Shown: positions 2,489-41,439 of the stretch, in pieces
Layout of the letters: each line of letters starts with the position of its first letter
Numbering within the stretch: position 1 is the first letter of the stretch
Virus record (IMG/VR): IMGVR_UViG_3300042453_001086
Location: 125,883-189,882 of that record
Origin: a virus
Direction: 5' to 3' (one strand)
DNA: 64,000 nt
Translations under genes and position numbers: made by a program
Notes under the pieces: generated by a model
Told to the model about the DNA's origin: nothing
Databases searched by the model: none
Seen by the model: only the letters and a program-made list of their open reading frames with translations

Positions 2489-2917
2489 CTAGTAGTCGCT
2501 GAAGATGTAGACGTTACGGTAACCCTTCTCACAGGCAGTGAAATCGTAACGCAGGGAAGAATCGTAAGTTGCCTCCCAATCTACAACCAAAGCAGAGGGC
2601 ACATCGTACAGTTCATCATAATACTGCTCAGCGAAGTCTGCAGTCGAATCGTAGTTGCCACGGTAGCGTTCTTCGCAACCCTCAACATAGCAAACGTCGC
2701 CCATCTCTTCGATCAGGGCATCAACGGCATCGTAACCGATTGCCTCACCAGCGGTGCAATAGTCTTCATAATGTGCAACGAAATCGCTCTCGTTGTGGTT
2801 GTCGATGAACTCCAGCATGTCATCCAGAGCATAGTTCTCATCGAGCAATTCGTCGATCTTCTCAACAGTAGCAGCAGCGAGAACTTCTTTGTAGTTGGCA
2901 GTCAAGGTGACGGACAT
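2489..2917 (-). CDS. ardA: ArdA-like antirestriction (DNA-mimic) protein
   Basis: Highly acidic 142 aa; RYRGNYDSTADFAEQYYDELYDVPSALVVDWEATY matches the ArdA C-terminal pattern (YxGxYDSxxDFA..E..xxP..IDWE). Confidence 0.7.
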   Translation of the reverse strand: MSVTLTANYKEVLAAATVEKIDELLDENYALDDMLEFIDNHNESDFVAHYEDYCTAGEAIGYDAVDALIEEMGDVCYVEGCEERYRGNYDSTADFAEQYYDELYDVPSALVVDWEATYDSSLRYDFTACEKGYRNVYIFSDY

Positions 2918-2996
2918 TTGCTTTGTTTGGTTGATGGAATCAGTCTACAGGGTCAGGGTGGGGTCTGTGGCGACCCCTGTGCCACTTGTCAGAGTG

Positions 2997-3161
2997 TCAC
3001 ATGCCGTTCATGAAATCGGCAAGGGCTTCGAGATACTGGGCTTTGGTCTCAAAGGTCCGACCGTAGATAGTACGGGGGTACTCTGCCTCAGGGGCGGGAG
3101 CGTTGCTGGGCTCCTTGCCCTGGGAGAGGATCTGTTGCACGTAGGGGTTGTTTTTGTTCAT
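2997..3161 (-). CDS. hypothetical early protein (probably leaderless)
   Basis: Hand-translated 54 aa MNKNNPYVQQILSQGKEPSNAPAPEAEYPRTIYGRTFETKAQYLEALADFMNGM; ATG 6 nt after TAGACT. Confidence 0.75.
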   Translation of the reverse strand: MNKNNPYVQQILSQGKEPSNAPAPEAEYPRTIYGRTFETKAQYLEALADFMNGM

Positions 3162-3223
3162 GCTGTTAGTCTACAGGGTCAGGGGTCAGGGTGCGAGGCG
3201 GTGTGTGCCACCTTGCCAACTGG

Positions 3224-3460
3224 TCAGGGCAGCATCGCCAGACGCTCAGCGAGTCGCGCCTTCGCTTGGATCTCCTCAAGTGCAGGGATCTGTTCAATCC
3301 AGCGCATCTCACACTTAGAGTAATCGTAACCCTGAGATTCCAATTCTTTCATGTATGCCACAGCAGCGGAGTGATAATCGAACAGGCGCAGGGAATCGAA
3401 ATCCTCACCTTCATAATCCCATCCGCCGATGACAGCGTAGGCGCGGGGAGTGTCGGTCAT
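3224..3460 (-). CDS. hypothetical early protein
   Basis: 78-aa ORF behind a promoter repeat. Confidence 0.75.
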   Translation of the reverse strand: MTDTPRAYAVIGGWDYEGEDFDSLRLFDYHSAAVAYMKELESQGYDYSKCEMRWIEQIPALEEIQAKARLAERLAMLP

Positions 3461-3527
3461 GTCGTTTCGTTTGAACTGAGATCAGTATAGGGTGGAGAGG
3501 GGGCCGCGGCGACCCCCAGTGGACAGT

Positions 3528-3716
3528 TCAGAGATTGCCCATCAGAGCGGATGCTACGATCTCGCCAGCACCTGCCAGGTCATCCCGAACGATCAGGCGG
3601 AGCATCTCAGCACCCTCGGTGGACTGGTGGAGCATACGGACGTGCCCATCAGCAGCGTTTGGGCAGTTGCCGTGAACGATGGCGATAGCGAGGGCGGTTG
3701 CTTCGGTCTTGGTCAT
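3528..3716 (-). CDS. hypothetical early protein
   Basis: 62-aa ORF behind a promoter repeat. Confidence 0.7.
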   Translation of the reverse strand: MTKTEATALAIAIVHGNCPNAADGHVRMLHQSTEGAEMLRLIVRDDLAGAGEIVASALMGNL

Positions 3717-3805
3717 GTGGTTGTCTGAACTGAGATCAGTCTACAGGCAGGGGGTGGCCGCGGCGGGTGCTAGTGTGCCACCTTGGGTACTGGCCGCGGC
3801 CACCT

Positions 3806-3841
3806 AGACAAACGCCCCCTAGGCGATTAACCTAGAGGGCG
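3806..3841 (-). terminator. intrinsic terminator
   Basis: Minus strand CGCCCTCTAGG-TTAATCG-CCTAGGGGGCG followed by TTTGTCT. Confidence 0.65.
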
Positions 3842-3912
3842 GGAGGGGAGGGAAGCACAGGCAGACAGCGAGTAGTATGGGTGAACTACTCGCGGCCGCC
3901 GAGTTTGTGTTA

Positions 3913-4449
3913 CTAACCCTCGATGATGTTAGTGATAGTTTCGATCATAATGTCGCTCATCTCGTCAACACTGAAACCGTCAACTTTACAATGCAGGTTG
4001 TTAACGCCCACCTGAACTTCACCCATCACACCAAACAGTCCCTGGTGTGCAATGTGCAAGATACGATGAATCGGATTGCCAGCAGTTACACCAGTGCCAG
4101 ATGCAAACGTAACGTAAGTTGCAGTGGGATTGATAGCACGAACGATGAAATTGTTTTTGTACCAGCGTTCGATTGCGTTGCCTTTATCGTTTTGTTTCTT
4201 ACTCTCAAAGCAGGCAATCAGTTCACCTTTGTAGAACCAAACCCCACCATCAGGGGCACACGATCCGATGCCACCAGGGATCTGAGATTGATCGAGTTTG
4301 GATTGTACAATCAGATCAGGATAGGTGCTGCTGAGAATGTTTGCCACATGAAACATTGCCGATTTGGCGTTATCATCCATCGCCTTAGACTGCTCATCAA
4401 ATGCAGTCGTGCCAGGTTGAATGCCGCCTTTGAATGTAGTGTGGTGCAT
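3913..4449 (-). CDS. EcoRI-fold type II restriction endonuclease
   Basis: 178 aa from MHHTTF (start chosen because a promoter sits at 4472-4500); PDGG...ESKKQ...GNAIERWYKN parallels EcoRI PDGG...EAKHQG...GNAIERSHKN. Confidence 0.8.
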   Translation of the reverse strand: MHHTTFKGGIQPGTTAFDEQSKAMDDNAKSAMFHVANILSSTYPDLIVQSKLDQSQIPGGIGSCAPDGGVWFYKGELIACFESKKQNDKGNAIERWYKNNFIVRAINPTATYVTFASGTGVTAGNPIHRILHIAHQGLFGVMGEVQVGVNNLHCKVDGFSVDEMSDIMIETITNIIEG

Positions 4450-7464: not shown

Positions 7465-8196
7465 TTATTTCCATCTTGGACCCATTACCCAACCTACTAA
7501 TGATTTACGTTTACCAGACTTAACCTTTCTTACTCTATGTGCTATTCTACTATCAAATACAGTCAGTAATCCTAGTTCTTTTGGTACAGTAAACATAGAA
7601 GAACATTTGCCTGCTTGTAATGATGATCCTTGTCTTAGTAGTTGTAGTTCTCCACCTTCATAATCATCTGGTGATGACAGTTGTAATGTAAATGATAGTT
7701 TCCTTACTACCTCTCCATTGATTATTGCTTTTTCGTGAGCGAGATTAGTATTCCTATTGTGTTTTACATTGAAACCTAACATACAGTTGATGTCATGATC
7801 CATGTGCCAAGTGTAGAAGTTTCCTTGTGTATATTCAATATAGGATACTGCTTCATTCTCAATGCATGTAATATCATACAGAAAGCTTTCTCTATTGGCT
7901 CTTGCGATATAATGCCACAAGAAACCAGAGAACCAATGAAATGTAGGAAAGGTAGTCAGTTGACAGTTTCTCACTCTAGTATCTTCCCTACCATCAGATA
8001 GCACAGCCTTTTCGAGATCGTGGTATGGGAAAGATTGTGTATCAACCTCTTCCACGAACTGCTGTACGATATTTTCTGGTAAATGTGTCCTATAGTGAAT
8101 AGCTGGACTAAGGGTTCCCAGGTCTTGCATCTTTATGATATGGAATGAATAATACGTTGGAGAGTGTGTGTGAATGTCTGGCATGAAACCAGTCAA
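7465..8196 (-). CDS. 2OG-Fe(II) oxygenase (PKHD/prolyl-hydroxylase-like)
   Basis: YTWHMD (HxD), RKLSFTLQLS..YEGGEL, H-RVRKV..G.RKSLVGW; true start may be later. Confidence 0.9.
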   Translation of the reverse strand: MTGFMPDIHTHSPTYYSFHIIKMQDLGTLSPAIHYRTHLPENIVQQFVEEVDTQSFPYHDLEKAVLSDGREDTRVRNCQLTTFPTFHWFSGFLWHYIARANRESFLYDITCIENEAVSYIEYTQGNFYTWHMDHDINCMLGFNVKHNRNTNLAHEKAIINGEVVRKLSFTLQLSSPDDYEGGELQLLRQGSSLQAGKCSSMFTVPKELGLLTVFDSRIAHRVRKVKSGKRKSLVGWVMGPRWK

Positions 8197-8341
8197 AGTA
8201 TTCTTCTTCTAGTGCTTGTGCGTTACGTCTATGCCTTGCTTTTAATGCTTTGTTTTTACATGCACGAGAACGACTGAGCAGGTAATCAATACGAGTACCC
8301 GCCCAATCGATTAATGTGTTATACTGTTCTTCATTTGACAT
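8108..8341 (-). CDS. hypothetical protein
   Basis: 77-aa ORF tiling the operon. Confidence 0.6.
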   Translation of the reverse strand: MSNEEQYNTLIDWAGTRIDYLLSRSRACKNKALKARHRRNAQALEEEYFDWFHARHSHTLSNVLFIPYHKDARPGNP

Positions 8342-8603
8342 ATAGGGTCATGTTATAGTGATCGTAGGTGTCAAATGATTGATCAGGAGGAAGAAGATCA
8401 ATGAGCATGTGAACAAACTCAGCAGGGAATAGATCACGCTTTCTGAGAAGCTTTGTGCGCTCTTCATCAGTCAGATCTTCGGTTTGAAGAATGACTTTAT
8501 AGGTGGTGGGAGTGATGGGATTAAGTGTAATCATCTTTGGTAAAGAAGCGAACGCAGGAGAGAAACTTTTGATATTCTGCATCAGTGAAGTTATCCGATG
8601 CAT
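8331..8603 (-). CDS. hypothetical protein
   Basis: ORF tiling the operon. Confidence 0.6.
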   Translation of the reverse strand: MHRITSLMQNIKSFSPAFASLPKMITLNPITPTTYKVILQTEDLTDEERTKLLRKRDLFPAEFVHMLIDLLPPDQSFDTYDHYNMTLYVK

Positions 8604-8808
8604 AGGGTATATTATTTACCTCAGCACAGAAACGATTGATTTGTTCTGTTGGTGTGACGCTGAGAGCAGTAGCGAGGAGAATACTAATCATCTTTGTTGC
8701 ATTCGTTCAGACCTTGCACAAACTCTTCAATACGTTTGTTTGCACGATAGTTTTGAATGATGTCAACAACACAATAACCAAAGGCGAAGCCCGCCATAAT
8801 CGTAGTAA

Positions 8809-9009
8809 TCATTTGAGTGTACCGTCGAGATTAAAGATTGCACCACAGTCAGGGCAGTGGTAAGAATGAGTTTTGTCCGCCTCCCAGGATTGTAGAGCGA
8901 TGACTCTAGAATAGAAATAGGGAGGAGAATACTGATCGTGAAGATGCTCAGGAATAGGAATGGTGTGCCACAGAGCGTTGCAAGCAGGGCAGTGAGATAC
9001 TTTTTCCAT
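8809..9009 (-). CDS. zinc-ribbon protein
   Basis: CPAC...CPDCG. Confidence 0.7.
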   Translation of the reverse strand: MEKVSHCPACNALWHTIPIPEHLHDQYSPPYFYSRVIALQSWEADKTHSYHCPDCGAIFNLDGTLK

Positions 9010-9163
9010 TAGGATTGCATTACCTTGTCATACAGATCATTATAGATCTCACGCTCGGTTTCGTCAAGATTGTCTGCAAAGTGTGACTTATCGAGCATCA
9101 ACATGATGTCCTGTAGCATGATTAGCTCTTCATACAGAAGATGCGGAATGGTGAGTGTAGGTG

Positions 9164-9382
9164 TCATGTAAACTCCGCAATGTAATAATCAACCGTGACT
9201 TCATTCTCTGCAGCAAGACGCTCAAGGTCTTCTACATAATAGTCAATCAGTTCCTTTTCACGATACTCATCAATGTCGAGCAGAATGTCATCCATGTTAT
9301 CGTTTTGCATAGCGGCAATCGGGGTGAGGTTGAGGAAGTTCAGCACATGCTTTATCATATGCTTTAAAGAGTTCATGATCAC
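9164..9382 (-). CDS. acidic hypothetical protein
   Basis: Acidic C-terminus ending EVTVDYYIAEFT. Confidence 0.6.
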   Translation of the reverse strand: MIMNSLKHMIKHVLNFLNLTPIAAMQNDNMDDILLDIDEYREKELIDYYVEDLERLAAENEVTVDYYIAEFT

Positions 9383-9582
9383 GTTGAATCAGAAAGACAT
9401 TATACATCAAAATGCCAATAAAGGCAAGAAAGACGTAGGTAGTTTTCATCTCGTAGACTCCAGCACATTAGATACAAAAGAAACTGCTTGCGTTGCTCCT
9501 TGATGTGCAGTATTATAGGTTAAATCCCTGAACGAGGGATTGATAAAGCAACCAAACAGAATAATGAAAAGTACCAACTTCA

Positions 9583-9852
9583 TCAGCAAGCACCATGAAA
9601 AGGATTACCAATCTGAGGCAGGTTAGAGTTATCACGAGTCTCGGTGTATCCGTAAGCAATACGCTCACGAATATCAAGCATCATCTCCACACGATTCAGA
9701 AACTTTTTAGACACTTGACCATGAGGAGCAAAGGTAACAGCACGAAGATACCACTCTTTAGAAATATCACCGTAAGGAGTCTTCACAGGATAGAAGTCAA
9801 CAATCATGTTGCCATCCTTGCTGGTCAGTTGAGGAGTCTGCAGGGTCTGCAT
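9583..9852 (-). CDS. conserved cyanophage hypothetical protein
   Basis: 89 aa; promoter TTGACG-17-TATACT at 9876-9904. Confidence 0.75.
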   Translation of the reverse strand: MQTLQTPQLTSKDGNMIVDFYPVKTPYGDISKEWYLRAVTFAPHGQVSKKFLNRVEMMLDIRERIAYGYTETRDNSNLPQIGNPFHGAC

Positions 9853-9886
9853 CGGTGTGTCTCGATTACCTTAGTAGTATAGGGGT

Positions 9887-10102
9887 TTATGGGGCATCCG
9901 TCAAGGGGAGCTTTGATTTGCTTTGCTTATGGGTCCGTGGGGTGGTCGATTTGATCTGCTTTTGTTTTGCGATTTTTTGCTGTTTTCGGATGTATTCTAC
10001 CGCCTTGGCGGCGGTCGCAACGTCCGTAATCTGCTCTCCATTGTAAAGTATAACATATCTGGTGCCCCATGGCACTGCTGCGTATCCATCTTTAGTGATC
10101 AT
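9887..10102 (-). CDS. hypothetical protein
   Basis: 71 aa, MITKDGYAAVPWG. Confidence 0.65.
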   Translation of the reverse strand: MITKDGYAAVPWGTRYVILYNGEQITDVATAAKAVEYIRKQQKIAKQKQIKSTTPRTHKQSKSKLPLTDAP

Positions 10103-10188
10103 TTGGTCTCCTATGTTATACTTTGGTATTTTTCGGTGATTTGGCTGCGAGGAGAGGGCAACAGGTCATGCTGCTGCCCCCTTGACAC

Positions 10189-11439
10189 TCATGCAATAAT
10201 GCTCGTGGGGGGCACACCCTTCACAAAGATAGCATCAACAACGTTCTGCAGGCGTTTCTGAATCTGTGCGCCATAGTTACCGTAGATAGGCACAGTCACG
10301 AAACCAAACGGTTTGCGATAGTTACCGATGTCACCAGCAGTGAGTTTGCCTTCCGCAATGTCACGCGCATCATCCACATTCATGCGGATTACACGACCAA
10401 TGGTTTGTGCCATCTCCACAATGTTGAGGTTACGAAGCAGGACACAATGCGTCAGACCAGGAACATTGATACCCTCAGACAGAATGCTGTAGTGAAACAC
10501 CACAAACTTACGCGCAGGATCTTTACCCCATGCGGTGAGAGTATCAAAGAATACCTCACGGTTGACCTTCTGTTTGTTGACATAGGCACCGTGCTTAGCA
10601 GTAATGTGCAGCACATCATATCCACGCTCAGACAGTTCCTGAAGCATGGAAGTAGCAGCAACCATATTCCAAATGATTTTGCTGCTGGGTGCTGCTACCA
10701 GCACTTTCTGACCAGACTCAGCATCAAGATTGTCTACAATCTCCAGCACAGTGTTAGCGTCACAGTCAGCAGCGTTAGACTTGGTGCGAGCAACTGCGGG
10801 CTGTTCGTGAATCTGAATCGAAGGAGGAATGATACTACCAGACTCAATCAGTTCCTGTGCAGGAGTGATCTCAATCACATCACCAAACACCAGTTTGTTA
10901 TTCATGCCACGCCCCTTGGGATTCTTGGAGTGACGAGGAGTTGCAGTAAAGAAATAGCAGTTGTTTGCCATCTCAGATACCATAGCAGTCTTAGGAAAGA
11001 ACTGCTTGCTGGTAGCATTATGTGCCTCATCGAAGTAAGCTACATCGATGTCAATACCAGCATCAACAATACGATGCAGAGAATGATAGGTGGTGAAGAT
11101 AAAGCAGGACTCACCAGCAGCACGAGCGGTGTTGTTGAACAGCGCAATCGTATCAGATTTGGTGGTGCTGAAGTGATGAGTTTCACCACTGTGAACGTGC
11201 ATGATGTGAACGTTCTTGGTATCAATAATCTGCAGATATTCGTCACTCAGTTGGTTGCACAAAAGCAACCTAGGTGCTACCACAACAGCAGTCAAACCAC
11301 GCTCAGAGGCATTCAGAAGACCCAGCAGGTGCAGGATTTGCTCAAGAGTCTTGCCAGCACCCGTAGGTTGAATCACAATGCCCTTACAGGCGTTCTGCAT
11401 GGCAGCGATGGTACGCGGTTGGTGGGAGCGAAGTTTCAT
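10189..11439 (-). CDS. superfamily II DEAH helicase (ResIII-like)
   Basis: QPTGAGKT, FDEAH, FTAT, LSEGINVPGL, QTIGRVIR; start MKLRSHQ fixed by the promoter at 11462-11490. Confidence 0.9.
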   Translation of the reverse strand: MKLRSHQPRTIAAMQNACKGIVIQPTGAGKTLEQILHLLGLLNASERGLTAVVVAPRLLLCNQLSDEYLQIIDTKNVHIMHVHSGETHHFSTTKSDTIALFNNTARAAGESCFIFTTYHSLHRIVDAGIDIDVAYFDEAHNATSKQFFPKTAMVSEMANNCYFFTATPRHSKNPKGRGMNNKLVFGDVIEITPAQELIESGSIIPPSIQIHEQPAVARTKSNAADCDANTVLEIVDNLDAESGQKVLVAAPSSKIIWNMVAATSMLQELSERGYDVLHITAKHGAYVNKQKVNREVFFDTLTAWGKDPARKFVVFHYSILSEGINVPGLTHCVLLRNLNIVEMAQTIGRVIRMNVDDARDIAEGKLTAGDIGNYRKPFGFVTVPIYGNYGAQIQKRLQNVVDAIFVKGVPPTSIIA

Positions 11440-22530: not shown

Positions 22531-23385
22531 TTAGGAATACAACAAAATCTCGGTAGCGGGTTTAGCAGCGTATCCAGTACTGGTTTTCTTACGACGACCA
22601 GCAGTATATGTCACAGGAAATCTAGTAATGTTTAGGTCACCTTTCCTATCATCAAAAAATGTAGATCCATCACAACGGTTGCATAGAAGAACATGACCAT
22701 CAATGCTTTTGGCATGTTCTATCAGTTCTTCAGTCTCTGTATCACCCCAGCTCGTACCATACTTAGTAAAACTATCACGATATGGTGGGTCAAAATAGTT
22801 TAAATCTCCAGTGGGGCAGTCTTTGTAATCACCACAATAGATCTCTACATTTTGCAACAACTCATGCCAAGCATATACCATTGCTTTATCATAGACTACA
22901 TCTTTTTGATTCAATAGTCCTGCAGGAGTACCATATCTACCGTTAGTATTTTTATTGATCTGCCAGATGCCATTGAAACCTGTTTTCATCAGGAAATACA
23001 GTACTCCCGCTTCAAACTCTTTAGACCAAAACTTGTAATCATATGCATGAGTTTGACGAACTTCAAAAAAGTATTTCTTTCTATCTTCTTTAGACATAGG
23101 AATATACTTGCTCTGAAAAACATCTACAACATTGCAAAACTCATCTGGAGATTGTTTTACCGTTCGGTAAATATTTACAACACTTTCGTTGATATCATTG
23201 ATATATGCCCGTTCGGGATTATACTTCTGCATAACGTGCAGAAACATAGCACCACCACCAAAGAACGGTTCAGAATAACTGTTGACCGTTGATGGTAAAT
23301 GTGGTGCATGGTATTTGAGCATTTTGGTTTTGCCACCTGCCCATATGAAAAGTGGTTTTAGTTTAGGCATCTTGACTGTCGCCAT
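22531..23385 (-). CDS. Dam-family (D12 class) N6-adenine DNA methyltransferase with divergent target-recognition residues
   Basis: WAGGK, EPFFGGG, NDIN, GFNGIWQIN, DPPY; promoter TTGACA-18-TATCAT at 23396-23425. Confidence 0.92.
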   Translation of the reverse strand: MATVKMPKLKPLFIWAGGKTKMLKYHAPHLPSTVNSYSEPFFGGGAMFLHVMQKYNPERAYINDINESVVNIYRTVKQSPDEFCNVVDVFQSKYIPMSKEDRKKYFFEVRQTHAYDYKFWSKEFEAGVLYFLMKTGFNGIWQINKNTNGRYGTPAGLLNQKDVVYDKAMVYAWHELLQNVEIYCGDYKDCPTGDLNYFDPPYRDSFTKYGTSWGDTETEELIEHAKSIDGHVLLCNRCDGSTFFDDRKGDLNITRFPVTYTAGRRKKTSTGYAAKPATEILLYS

Positions 23386-23635
23386 AAGTAGGTGGATGAT
23401 ACTTCAAATACTCAAAGAATGTCAACTTCATTTCTTTTTGTGTCATACCGCAATGTTTAGCAGCTGCAGGAAGTGTCATTTTAGACTGAAACAGTCCTTC
23501 GTTTGCTTCTTTTACATTCTCTGGTGTAGTCTTTACAGGGATTTCGTATAAATCTACTTTATTGATTTTTAGAAGACTCATCTTTCCACTTATCAAGGGT
23601 ATCAAAGAGTTGGTCAACAGATTTGAGTTTGTCAA
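23363..23635 (-). CDS. hypothetical protein with HTH-like segment
   Basis: MTLPAAAKHCGMTQKEMKLTFFEYL. Confidence 0.55.
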   Translation of the reverse strand: MTNSNLLTNSLIPLISGKMSLLKINKVDLYEIPVKTTPENVKEANEGLFQSKMTLPAAAKHCGMTQKEMKLTFFEYLKYHPPTYGDSQDA

Positions 23636-39900: not shown

Positions 39901-41401
39901 CCGTTAGAGGTGCCTGGTTCCATGTGTTACTGAACTCATCGTAGCGAATGAACGCACGGTCGTCTCTCTGAAGCGAAACACCAGTGTACTGAGCGATAAC
40001 CATCGACTTGAAACCAGTCGCCTTACGACCATCAGCCCAGATACCACAAATACCCCAAGTCGAACGAATCGAACAGTTGAAGACGTATGGCGAAGCAGAT
40101 TCTACCGAGTCAACTTCTGCTTGAACGGTAGCAGTTTGGTTGAGGGGAAGAGCAGATGTTGAAGTATATGTTTCACCAGAAGTTAGGTTGAGACCTTGTG
40201 CTGTGAATGGAACACGATAGTAGAATATTTTAGGATCGTTGGTGCTGATATTGTATACAGCAAAAACACCATTTAATGCATCATTAAGATTGTTGTTGGT
40301 TACAGCAACGTACTGACCTGGGAAGAATCCATGATTAATCTTAGTTCTAACTTCAAGAGTAAGAATACCCGTGTCAGTCCCGCCTCCATCAATCAACTTA
40401 ATGCTGTCAATGAACACAGCATCAGATAGAGGTCCAACAATTCTGTTTTCTTGTACTCTGTAGTCAAACTCTCTACCACGGATTACAAGTCTAGTCCACT
40501 TGGTATCATCAGATTCTGGATCAATACCAGTGACAACTGCATTAGCAACAAATGCGTTACCGTTATAGATTACTCTGTCACCAGAGTTGTATGTTGTAGT
40601 ATTGCTCCATTGGATAGCGACAGGAACTTCAGATCCTTCTACATATACATCATCAATAGAATCTTGATAGTCACCAAAAGCTTTTGCAATCTTTCTGTAT
40701 AGTAGTCCTAGATCTTCTCTGTCAGCAAAAACAAAGTTGGTAATCTTGTGGTGTGAAAACTCAGGTACTGGACGGTTTGTTGTATCGTTTGGTTGTGTGT
40801 AAACGCGACCTACCGTACCGTCGTATAAAGGAGAGTTTGAAGAAAGATCACCGTCAAGAATAGTGAACTGCCAGAAATAGCAACCACCAGTTACGTTGAA
40901 CAGAGCACAACGAGGAACATCTTTATCAGCAGGATCGGGAACATATAGAGCACGTAGCTGAGTTCTACGAAGGTCTGTACCTACTAGTGAAGTACCTCTA
41001 GGAATAGTCGCACCACCGTCACGACCATTAAACTTGTAAAGAACGTTATCTGGATCTGAAAGATCAAAACTTACATCTTCATTTGTCTCCCACTGCTGTA
41101 GCGTTTCATTATATTGAAATGTAGGAATATCTTCTACGTCTGGAACACCAGGACGGTTATCAATATAGTGATTGCCAGGTGCCAGCATGATTGTAAACTG
41201 GTCAAACCTATCATTATCTACATTAGGTAGATACGAGAATCTAGCTACTTCTAAGAAAGCACGTTGAATGCTTACAAATGGTCTTAAGGGGGTGTTGCCT
41301 CTGTTATCTAGAGCATCTGATGCATTATAATCATCGGGAGAAACATAAAGATATTTACCAGTCTTACTTGAAAGTAGATTATCTAATCTCGTTAATGGCA
41401 T
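30914..41401 (-). CDS. giant (3495 aa) virion structural protein, probable fibre/baseplate appendage
   Basis: N-terminus MPLTRLDNLL..YVSPDD..PFVSIQRAFLE typical of cyanomyovirus structural proteins; helical KCxRDIGY repeats; fibre-like Thr/Gly-rich C-terminal third; late promoter upstream. Confidence 0.85.
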   Translation of the reverse strand: MPLTRLDNLLSSKTGKYLYVSPDDYNASDALDNRGNTPLRPFVSIQRAFLEVARFSYLPNVDNDRFDQFTIMLAPGNHYIDNRPGVPDVEDIPTFQYNETLQQWETNEDVSFDLSDPDNVLYKFNGRDGGATIPRGTSLVGTDLRRTQLRALYVPDPADKDVPRCALFNVTGGCYFWQFTILDGDLSSNSPLYDGTVGRVYTQPNDTTNRPVPEFSHHKITNFVFADREDLGLLYRKIAKAFGDYQDSIDDVYVEGSEVPVAIQWSNTTTYNSGDRVIYNGNAFVANAVVTGIDPESDDTKWTRLVIRGREFDYRVQENRIVGPLSDAVFIDSIKLIDGGGTDTGILTLEVRTKINHGFFPGQYVAVTNNNLNDALNGVFAVYNISTNDPKIFYYRVPFTAQGLNLTSGETYTSTSALPLNQTATVQAEVDSVESASPYVFNCSIRSTWGICGIWADGRKATGFKSMVIAQYTGVSLQRDDRAFIRYDEFSNTWNQAPLTDAFATTPYHIKGDAYWKDDWRNFHVRASDDSFIQNVSIFAVGFADHFLLESGGDMSITNSNSNFGNTSMHSVGYKGFSFNQDKGGYITDIIPPQQLKTSDKDKLQYYPININLTNDATNTTKIYLGGDSVKDPENRPAASVGGFRIGARVNEQIKVKLNAGTGESGPTEKNAVLNPSGFKRWAASLATLNPAGASFTTEYNLRQDAANLIEANQTFIQSEAFGYILEKYPYLQNISYVNPNITADTGRYRDASNLIKANRQEIIDTAYSEMVSAFPGFVNPNETKCRRDLGYVVDAIADDLYDGGNANIVEATKSYFDGAGLPLSNGLSGEERQSVFAFNRVRDLCKLAIANMLSSTSSLQVSTITSSGTTVTVTCSSPHNLSVGGKISVIGLNQSAYNGNFTVLSSGFSATQFQYTALSAPSASPATGVAYVSTVTIDQANRTTLAGKLKNGSDLIFANKQQIVDAAYVSSIPSDTNGTKCKRDIGYVVSAVANDLNFGGNEYTIAAIKEYFNGNSLLSNGVQGEVTQTIAAFNNAREQCKLAINNQLNIKDLTIKPDPATGSNTSVNSCADVKSTIDNLFGLVTTTLQAGNLDGLATVNNGLYDCANVRTTIDTLSAILTTAISSASLASVPTPNPGLWSRVSDNSKCKRDIGYIVEAIVADLRLGGNVNTVNAAKAYYTGVTQDNDGVNDGYTLDYIESELSETLDAYNYVRDLCISAMRNHNTYMTVNTANSSIVTVPSTRGLAVGMKVVGVNTIPSTTGNNTGNELTNYNDQYEELVDGKVVPKSTNISTTYIPEGTYIKKIVNSTQIELGVKGSKLNYGTTKTAVAGTAIKVFFQLEEGIWTSSIGPSVDNTVIQDYVYSGDGECASIYQALNTYFGIISTILQNGINAVTATAPEVDTTLLSQRATAFTLQEIQGSNLLANPHDLETGTPVRLVPRAKPGSNVDKRLVRLPKGFSTNTKYYVIAPGRRTQPFNYATGDFAASDQQKILLATSEENAAAGIYIYSPETENINENVIIDVYQYVLDVNYDLHQYKTTLFDSTTFLTESPHIFDIPVNDAGVTLQKVFFRTGSDLGANSTLPNPANTYIGLFNDTTEYYVRYLDDANGSSTAKKFKIYLTAQNAIANENPVEFFENSGTTFYTFASKKRSPMKFNPTVDTADTPKGRWYLNTVSDAGTGNLITRLKQSDYSDDAVGPNAKTSDSYYERVNDLRSKQDRVYRFRFVIPAYRGTTVRDPLNGFVFKIRTDSKRKLLPQKILLKPTGNASPFATFYALNSAGQQVNEKLGWTYSQLNAAGFDDTVYDPYLNPVKIQTNSKISANIQSARQRTINGVNYLELTVFDHDVDPAYKTTIFTTVKITSPQGGDGTFEASLTDLDEDNFIEWEGACSGSAYVHAYLKYENEYHLILKGVTGNSTLDFDPFVTTTFKQGSVSAIMMDEPDGGRTDKNRNLYAVEGANVYTLTPGDIVKDSTNVSYTIAEVTDIEDLEGTYYIFSVDTIRRRIPNQQDGVYYLTCVRGDIRPFPVGSGVGENFRNFRFSQPISKLYPEFYKNDPEWYRALDDTLKDPPATISAADNYIHGLVTVNDSKNSLTKETVLDFVQDSGSGVYSFTGDNTIQAQSGPASAGSETRKISISGDSQYPTERKVYIELRRPSIARSGNHTFEYLGFGPGNYSTGFPARQEIVLTDVQDFYAQAKREDAGIVFYTGLNSNGDLYIGNRKINAITGEETFLESAELVESEDSDEDIGTLVTTFEVPVTFKDIITVEGFDGTKPSVFTSPVYFNVRVLDDFGGPVDPAITVKTNIDPNNDDGYLNVTSLGQKTGDIKIQKNTIDLAKIRLYARGEQGYTFRAHITNKTPDQASPFGGDILQPSTQIIKFGSSNPISGDVLLKGSQTDVTGSAGWIFANTYTVLSKSGDSGITNPQIASIQGFGTGNVIRLNWNTTGSPAWTNTLLNINESTQVKITGAQAPIAALNGIWRVANTVGNPFSSSATYLDVTPSEGQQITVESQTYSINTTTQPNIKVSRSNTLWKEWGIIGTEAIRTETSNIGDYKLGVNTIARANHSAYDNAFISDETTPRANLDLVGTAFFSGKTLSVTPNNFLANSNPTNRTFNGVSNAFLIGGDSANPSNEATFRLSTATNRVGINVTNAELDRSLVIDGDGRVTGNFRFQADIEVNGGDITTTVTTGSFNFVEDTTFTGTLNIGSYASTVNFAARATTLNIANTTTSTQTINIGNAAVTQTINIGNVGTGTHDINIAAGAANLTFDVGNPSASATSSKITLGGAYNANESNSFLEVKTKSAKFWGDMQIGVNKLITDTVTLGTNAGSVNFFSTSGSASTISFGLNASELNIGGQGGTTTIRNSLTVDASILSKGNITLDGGTAAFSFNGTRASLGSTIASHTGFPTGAPLDKNIDLVTVLSGFNNTVDTAGAGPWGGTFFQNAIGTYTANDGSALVALTGNEYYLPLVSAPTYAEGDDILIDSTVASGVHPEIVKVAVGGLRRTTTAPYYIIVERQPYGTFLPQKTNHPDNTTTRKVNVALDATWLTANTDGAGTTDVFSLAEFGGSLASGDYIFVDRNSTGTSGEAVKIGTSTGATAQKLIITNGAGSTKFEVDSTTGATVVSDATSLGGLTVYGPLNFVGSCVSTGDARKFKLSNTTGETFSVDMCNGATTITQGTLTTNVSALSATATWNSSATTFTGIKLNVTNTSSNASSDLIDLQVGGTTRFDVKASTGDTYIFGDLTVNGNTIKSSSADALELSGANVEVKGDLTVTGNDIKSSGGTTVLTLNNNDATFADNLTVTGDLTVNGGDFVVNFNGTKRFAVNDSGSIDLGGIDEYFTSTGGRKWIFIQNDSNTQNAINNTSEENLRSNCNYFVQTSGSPNTQLILMLPGTSAVGSIPAAKSGDMIRIVDTGGKISNTCQLVIRARNSIKIMGDSTGSNIGMPSGQVYSSGGELIINTPNAGFGLIYCGPDSGASTTFQGWWLMEI

Positions 41402-41439
41402 TACTCAGTTACCTGTAACTATAGTGATTTCTTCTGAGT

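Follow-up and report, generated by a model that had tools for sequence, protein, structure and literature searches.

Which DNA sequence is read by a Dam-like adenine methylase in which the residues standing for both Lys9 and Arg124 of the Escherichia coli enzyme (EcoDam) are replaced? The question is raised by a minus-strand open reading frame (ORF) at 22531-23385 of a 64,000-nucleotide stretch of viral DNA (the window, positions 125,883 to 189,882 of the IMG/VR record IMGVR_UViG_3300042453_001086), for which it had been predicted, from the letters alone, that AATT is methylated rather than GATC and that the enzyme is the unlinked partner of a nuclease encoded at 3913-4449. Sequence and comparative analyses indicate that the methylase probably targets AATT, giving A(m6A)TT (m6A, N6-methyladenine), and that it would be the cognate partner of an AATT endonuclease.

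The methylase and its base-reading residues

The product of the ORF, 284 amino acids long, contains LFIWAGGK and GFNGIWQINKNTNGRYGTPAG, and the parts on which the argument depends are located in the window as follows.

22531..23385, minus strand: Dam-family (D12) N6-adenine DNA methylase, 284 amino acids (PF02086, TIGR00571, model superposed on EcoDam)
23344..23346, minus strand: codon of Ile14, equivalent to EcoDam K9 (HMMER, MAFFT, family alignment, superposition)
23251..23265, minus strand: S-adenosylmethionine (AdoMet)-binding motif FxGxG, here FFGGG, residues 41-45 (translation, alignments)
22915..22983, minus strand: target-recognition beta-hairpin TGFNGIWQINKNTNGRYGTPAGL, residues 135-157 (alignments)
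22960-22962, minus strand: codon of Gln142, equivalent to EcoDam R124, within the recognition hairpin (alignments)
22780..22791, minus strand: catalytic motif IV, DPPY, residues 199-202 (translation; invariant in alignments)
23396..23425, minus strand: match to a sigma-70-like promoter, TTGACA-18-TATCAT, located just before the methylase start (11 of 12 positions, a consensus match only)

The protein matches PF02086 (MethyltransfD12) with an E-value of 3e-29 (102.9 bits vs. a cut-off of 22) and passes the NCBIfam "dam" subfamily model TIGR00571 (145.4 bits vs. 114.85), and it fails NF008152, the NCBIfam equivalog model of the E. coli-type Dam, with 61.7 bits vs. a cut-off of 441. The solved relatives that are best by sequence (HMMER against PDB chains) are DpnM (2e-26) and EcoDam (3e-15), followed by T4 Dam. 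An AlphaFold model built from 32 relatives, with a predicted local distance difference test (pLDDT) score of 92.4, superposes on EcoDam (2g1p) with Z 26.6 and a root-mean-square deviation of 2.2 Å over 236 residues, while Z is 26.3 for DpnM, about 22 for T4 Dam and 12 for the next, unrelated methyltransferases. F41, G43 and G45 of FFGGG are invariant in the alignments, and FxGxG precedes DPPY, which is the order of the alpha class. From its sequence and model, the ORF looks like a Dam-fold m6A methylase that is apparently active; translation may in fact begin with the ATG at 23370 (MPKLKPLF), since the homologues start with MKPLF or MKPIF.

The replacements named in the original prediction are found in three alignments (one made by HMMER to PDB chains of EcoDam, one made by MAFFT that includes E. 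coli K-12 Dam, and a family alignment of 274 sequences), in which Ile14 stands for EcoDam K9, Ile140 for L122 and Gln142 for R124, with P134 kept as Pro154, and the structural superposition agrees, laying model residues 8-284 on EcoDam 3-268 with an N-terminal offset of 5 that puts Ile14 on K9 again. In EcoDam, R124 reads the guanine of the fourth pair, where the R124A enzyme loses its preference for C:G, and L122 and P134 contact the neighbouring pair (PMC4417163). The readers of the third base (T3) are conserved in the phage enzyme as Ile140 and Pro154, and the recognition hairpin exceeds that of the GATC enzymes in the family alignment by two residues. As for the first base, a hydrophobic residue at the K9 position is real, but the argument drawn from it by the original prediction is weak, because nuclease-linked enzymes have I, M, V, T or K there (see below) and because the first-base contact is reported to be non-conserved in the Dam family, for which an ATC-reading ancestor has been proposed (PMC4417163).

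The family alignment, assembled from the best 150 representatives of a library of 1.8 billion proteins and 120 closer homologues, separates distinct types. The GATC type is characterized by F[LVI]KWAGGK together with FNGLYR.N and a short loop ending in G.FNVP, and Lys9 joins Arg in 46 of the 50 Arg-bearing sequences of the wider family. The Gln type, to which the window enzyme belongs, has L[FY][IM]WAGGK together with FNGIWQ and a loop longer by two residues (NKNTNGRFGTP); of its approximately 166 sequences, 144 carry Ile or Met at the K9 position and the others Lys, Thr, Arg or Val. In a further, smaller type the R124 position is occupied by Lys. Judging from these sequences, the K9 and R124 substitutions are not chance; they define a large subfamily, and the word "allele", used for them in the original prediction, has to be given up in favour of a deep clade. 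In a curated phage collection the only close relatives are those of Synechococcus phages S-RIM2 and S-BM1, at about 56-57% identity, in which the 23-residue hairpin is 100% identical to that of the window methylase, and the next matches do not exceed 32%. All public homologues carry the annotation "DNA adenine methylase", in keeping with the expectation that an automated pipeline would label the protein as plain Dam.

Gln-type methylases are not limited to phages. Proteins 40-42% identical to that of the window are encoded in the chromosomes of Klebsiella pneumoniae ATCC 13883, Gleimia and Actinomyces, where no nuclease homologue was found within 4 kb, which makes them possible orphan AATT methylases. 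The clusters of Lys/Gln-type representatives have Enterobacter and Klebsiella among their sources, a homologue search that started from an AT-rich protein of the Gln type led to Firmicutes Dam proteins, and a narrow peptide-pattern scan of genome contigs returned 8 loci, none of them from Campylobacter.

An EcoRI-fold nuclease and its linkage to Gln-type methylases

The putative partner gene lies on the same strand of the window, and its relevant parts are the following.

3913..4449, minus strand: partner gene, EcoRI-fold PD-(D/E)xK nuclease, 178 amino acids (model, Foldseek, profile)
4198-4254, minus strand: nuclease motif PD..ExK (invariant residues)
4165-4182, minus strand: nuclease motif GNAIER (profile alignment to EcoRI)

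The model of the nuclease (pLDDT 88.7) has EcoRI as each of its top five PDB matches in Foldseek, with E-values of 1.6e-6 to 1e-5 and template modelling (TM) scores of 0.65-0.71, and the next match has an E-value of 0.04; a profile made of 34 nuclease sequences also matches EcoRI, with E 7e-4. The segment G90-N91-A92-I93-E94-R95-W-x-K98-N99 aligns to EcoRI G140-N141-A142-I143-E144-R145-S-H-K148-N149, and the catalytic residues D67 (of PD), E82 and K84, as well as G90-N91-A92-x-E94-R95, are invariant among the homologues. In EcoRI, the inner AATT is read by the main chain of Asn141/Ala142, by Arg145 and by Glu144, some residues of the motif hold adjacent phosphates, and the outer G is read by Arg200 (PMC4081073, PMC3806743); nothing in the phage nuclease aligns with the segment around Arg200, this being a weak part of the alignment. 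Direct Pfam, NCBIfam and three-sequence-profile PDB searches with the window nuclease returned nothing, with no match to the Pfam EcoRI family PF02963 at E <= 1, while weak PF02963 matches are present in 8 of the 34 relatives (best 1.6e-4) and a precomputed one is carried by 5 database relatives. Because the Pfam model is missed or only weakly matched, the nuclease is, on its sequence and model, EcoRI-like in fold and motif but not a clean member of the family.

Homologues of this nuclease occur in exactly 65 phage records, namely S-RIM2 isolates, S-BM1 and S-CREM2. The stop codon of the S-BM1 nuclease overlaps the methylase start by 4 bp, whereas the two genes are separated by an ORF of 351 amino acids in S-RIM2 and by two small genes in S-CREM2. 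Eighty IMG/VR loci were gathered via the nuclease, and in about 60 of them the nuclease is followed, on its own strand, by a D12 methylase, which is within about 50 bp of the nuclease or overlaps it in about 42 loci and is 1-1.5 kb off in about 17. A contig of an Aquirufa metagenome-assembled genome (MAG) carries the nuclease and then the methylase with a gap of about 10 bp, and next to the closest methylase relatives for which the context is available (78% and 70% identity) the methylase start is overlapped by the nuclease gene. All 62 nuclease-associated methylases, which are 33-78% identical to the window protein, have Gln at the R124 position, and the K9 position is Ile in 29 of these, Met in 25, Val in two, Thr in one and Lys in two (S-CREM2 and one other locus), with three sequences unaligned there. 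Across the shared loci, the pairwise distances of nucleases and methylases are correlated with r = 0.73, a value reached in 0 of 2000 Mantel permutations. The invariable Gln and the failed Dam equivalog cut-off lend support to the claim that the enzyme is not a GATC Dam, and the S-BM1 overlap, the roughly 42 close IMG/VR loci and the covariation of distances do the same for its pairing with the nuclease at 3913-4449, an ORF whose earlier reading as a nuclease also agrees with the present results.

With regard to the neighbouring genes, the ORF between the S-RIM2 pair (2937-3992 of the examined locus) matches DUF6551 weakly (E 2.7e-4, short of the cut-off). The S-CREM2 gene adjoining the EcoRI-like nuclease (7704-10313 of the locus) bears the GenBank name "CRISPR-associated endonuclease Cas9/Csn1 (virion protein)".

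AATT avoidance

The 189,882-bp genome of the window phage contains 186 AATT sites vs. 1156 expected under a second-order Markov model, which corresponds to an observed/expected ratio (O/E) of 0.16 and z of about -39, and the depletion noted for this genome in the earlier reading agrees with this count. All ten NAATTN classes are depleted (0.007-0.27), and GATT, CATT and TATT, which differ from AATT by a single mismatch, are enriched (1.26-1.35). Among the other carriers of the nuclease, the AATT O/E is 0.23 in S-RIM2, 0.33 in S-BM1 and 0.54 in S-CREM2, whereas it is 0.85-1.00 in S-PM2, Syn9, P-SSM2, S-RSM4 and S-CREM1, in which no nuclease was found by profile search. The individual values of these five phages are 0.93, 1.00, 0.92, 0.97 and 0.85. 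AATT depletion is not general to cyanomyoviruses and tracks the nuclease. When the IMG/VR loci are pooled, no tetramer is more differentially depleted than AATT (log2 -0.97, vs. -0.30 for the second), with per-locus median O/E values of 0.39 vs. 0.94 (Mann-Whitney p = 1e-9, for loci that are not independent). The choice of AATT as target, for which both the EcoRI fold with its GNAIER motif and the rank of this tetramer speak, is consistent with these counts, to which ACG-2014f forms an exception (see below).

The extent of avoidance varies among carriers. At one extreme, the 111,864-bp contig IMGVR_UViG_3300021960_000030, estimated to be 63% complete, has 0 AATT sites vs. 340 expected and encodes a full-length nuclease homologue followed by a 2-oxoglutarate (2OG)-Fe(II) oxygenase, and no D12 methylase was found on it; at the other, several contigs with the adjacent gene pair have near-normal AATT (O/E 0.8-0.95). 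GATC has an O/E of 0.90 under a zero-order model and 0.57 under the Markov model in the window phage, and the latter depletion is at least partly an artefact, because the loss of AATT inflates the GAT and ATC counts (AATC and GATT at 1.30).

Other tetramers are depleted independently of the AATT system: CCGG is absent from the window phage (0 vs. 145 expected) and occurs 0-3 times in five control cyanomyoviruses, GGCC is reduced about five-fold in the window phage and in all of these controls but S-CREM1 (1.08), and S-RIM2, S-BM1, S-CREM1 and IMGVR_UViG_3300021960_000030 show a four- to six-fold depletion of AGCT.

Probable recognition of AATT, rival explanations and related systems

By analogy with EcoDam, AdoMet would be bound via FFGGG and the inner adenine of AATT flipped into the DPPY pocket, while the flanking bases would be read by the beta-hairpin in the major groove. 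Ile140 and Pro154 would take over the roles of L122 and P134 of EcoDam and contact the T:A pair that follows the target on its 3' side, Gln142 would recognize adenine in the fourth pair (T:A), where EcoDam uses its Arg to contact guanine, and Ile14, which cannot make the hydrogen bond of K9 to a first-position guanine, may tolerate or favour A:T. The methylase would then be the modification half, and the 178-amino-acid nuclease the restriction half, of a Type II-like pair, in which methylation and AATT avoidance would protect the phage DNA and the nuclease would cut unmethylated AATT in the DNA of the host or of competing phages. Such a modification has precedents: M.Tsp509I methylates the inner adenine to give A(m6A)TT (PMC3287169), and methylation of the inner adenine in GA(m6A)TTC blocks EcoRI (PMC4081073). 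AATT methylation in Acidimicrobiia MAGs is reported in a marine metaepigenome study.

Several observations weigh against this AATT pairing. In the window phage the two genes are about 18 kb apart, on the same strand and with the methylase upstream, and their relatives are discordant, the closest methylase (78%) sitting with a nuclease 48% identical to that of the window and the closest nuclease (72%) with a methylase 56% identical to that of the window. Because of this discordance, the sequences suggest that modules of the same specificity were reassorted in this phage; the nuclease is single-copy in the genome, and no remnant of a nuclease gene was found beside the window methylase. A second D12 methylase, of another type (YPGGK), is encoded outside the window, at about 40543-41433 on the minus strand (296 amino acids, "LRYPGGK...SFSG...DPPY", PF02086 1e-28), between the gp44 and gp62 clamp-loader genes, and the same methylase occupies the same place in S-BM1. 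Moreover, the loci compared are phylogenetically related, so that the counts overstate their independence. Loci with an adjacent methylase still avoid AATT (median about 0.4), and the persistence of this strong avoidance shows that methylation alone fails to remove the selection against the site. Finally, ACG-2014f, in whose genome the nuclease was searched for and is absent, has an AATT O/E of 0.51; its methylase (NC_026927, locus 2498-3379) is 72% identical to that of S-CREM2 and has Leu where the latter has Gln, a telling natural contrast between the two phages. It may be, as a speculation, that ACG-2014f represents a lineage that lost the nuclease and in which the system is decaying. An ORF of 170 amino acids without a Pfam family overlaps the start of the second D12 methylase by 4 bp.

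The weakest link is the reading of the first base, where the variation of residue 14 among linked enzymes (I, M, V, T, K) leaves room for an NATT specificity. A relaxed NATT (or WATT) methylase, for which only the two bases following the target adenine on its 3' side matter, would modify both strands of AATT and would hemimethylate GATT, CATT and TATT. Besides the variable K9 equivalent, the reported non-conservation of the first-base contact with the proposed ATC-reading ancestor (PMC4417163) and the inability of Ile or Met to hydrogen-bond to a base edge are in line with such an enzyme; yet a hydrophobic residue is present in 54 of the 59 sequences scored and co-varies with Gln throughout the family, which suggests a real contact, for example with the thymine methyl of an A:T pair, and a cognate methylase needs no wider target, so that relaxed specificity appears unlikely. 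Less probable still is an enzyme which is AATT-specific but a functional orphan in this phage, guarding against AATT-type restriction by the host or having another role, with a link to the nuclease that is only historical. The two genes are unlinked and of discordant ancestry here, the methylase has its own promoter-like site, and Gln-type methylases without a nuclease within 4 kb do exist in Klebsiella, Gleimia and Actinomyces, but the nuclease of this phage is intact and lacks none of its catalytic and recognition residues, the approximately 186 AATT sites left in the genome would need protection, and no other protecting enzyme of a matching type was found in it, a profile search for PF01555 and PF00145 methylases being negative.

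It is very improbable that the enzyme is an ordinary GATC Dam, or has an unrelated target, and that the association with AATT avoidance is coincidental. This explanation draws on the passed TIGR00571 cut-off and on the uniform annotation of the public homologues, and has against it the missing equivalents of Arg124 and Lys9, the failed equivalog model, the lost preference for GATC of R124A EcoDam (PMC4417163), the Gln present in 62 of the 62 enzymes linked to the EcoRI-fold nuclease, and the fact that GATC is neither specially avoided nor enriched (zero-order O/E 0.90). Two variants of the pair were rejected. If the nuclease depended on methylation and cut A(m6A)TT, the methylase serving to mark the DNA of the host, it would destroy the pair-bearing contigs with near-normal AATT (0.8-0.95), and the conserved EcoRI-type readers of adenine are, in EcoRI, blocked by inner-adenine methylation (PMC4081073); near-normal AATT in these contigs is what a classical system protected by methylation would show. 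A site of more than four bases (RAATTY or GAATTC, for instance) agrees less well than a four-base site with the depletion of all NAATTN contexts (0.007-0.27).

As for the preferred AATT pairing, the phage methylase shares with EcoDam, DpnM (M.DpnIIA) and T4 Dam the fold, the FxGxG and DPPY motifs, the hairpin architecture and the third-base readers; it differs from them by Gln for Arg124, Ile for Lys9, a hairpin longer by two residues and an identity of 25-27%, and its putative partner is an EcoRI-fold nuclease instead of one of the DpnII/MboI type. That a Dam fold can read AATT is indicated by the RAATTY methylase of Campylobacter jejuni (M.CjeIAI, CJSA_0199), an m6A enzyme of the D12 class with AATT in its site (PMC4294202). 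Compared by description only, this enzyme differs from that of the phage by its six-base site and by being an orphan used for DNA discrimination. The Type II systems Tsp509I and MluCI, likewise compared by description, have the four-base target predicted for the phage pair but are bacterial, and MluCI is described as having elements in common with EcoRI and MunI (PMC4081073). The EcoRI system (GAATTC) resembles the phage nuclease in its fold, in PD..ExK and GNAIER..KN, and has m6A at the inner adenine as its protecting mark, as predicted for the phage pair; EcoRI has 277 amino acids vs. the 178 of the phage nuclease, which is without an aligned counterpart of the Arg200 region. M.EcoRI is not known to be a D12 enzyme, and M.CjeIAI goes by the name CtsM/Cj0208 in the literature. 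Viruses that carry a site-specific nuclease together with a methylase are represented by the restriction-modification (R-M) pairs of chloroviruses and by EcoP1I of phage P1. No description of a nuclease-methylase pair or of AATT avoidance in T4-like cyanophages, nor of the specificity of the Gln-type clade, was found in the searchable literature, REBASE being outside the scope; the sole prior hint of such a pair in these phages is the GenBank product name of the S-CREM2 nuclease, "restriction endonuclease EcoRI", and the S-CREM2 paper does not discuss this gene. AATT R-M systems and non-GATC enzymes of the Dam family are already known, and it is the phage setting that is the interesting part.

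It can be advanced tentatively, as a possibility that is still rather doubtful, that T4-like cyanophages carry a mobile AATT-specific R-M module as an offensive weapon, for the degradation of host DNA or the exclusion of co-infecting phages, with mixed self-protection, exchangeable genes and a family-wide Gln rule. If so, self-protection would combine A(m6A)TT methylation with the purging of AATT, down to zero sites in some lineages that have apparently lost the methylase, and the nuclease and methylase genes would swap between lineages because their specificity is fixed. The Dam position-4 rule, by which Arg stands for C:G and Gln for T:A, would be natural and family-wide. The name "DNA adenine methylase (Dam)", which annotation pipelines give to this protein and to marine relatives numbering in the hundreds, implies GATC, while the evidence from the clade points elsewhere, and Gln replacing Arg in the FNG-x-x-R hairpin would provide a simple sequence rule to tell them from true Dam. 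A complete nuclease and methylase system in abundant marine cyanophages, with a very strong footprint on genome composition, would bear on how phages handle the DNA of hosts and of rival phages, on the reading of restriction digests and methylomes of marine viral DNA, and on the evolution of specificity within the Dam fold.

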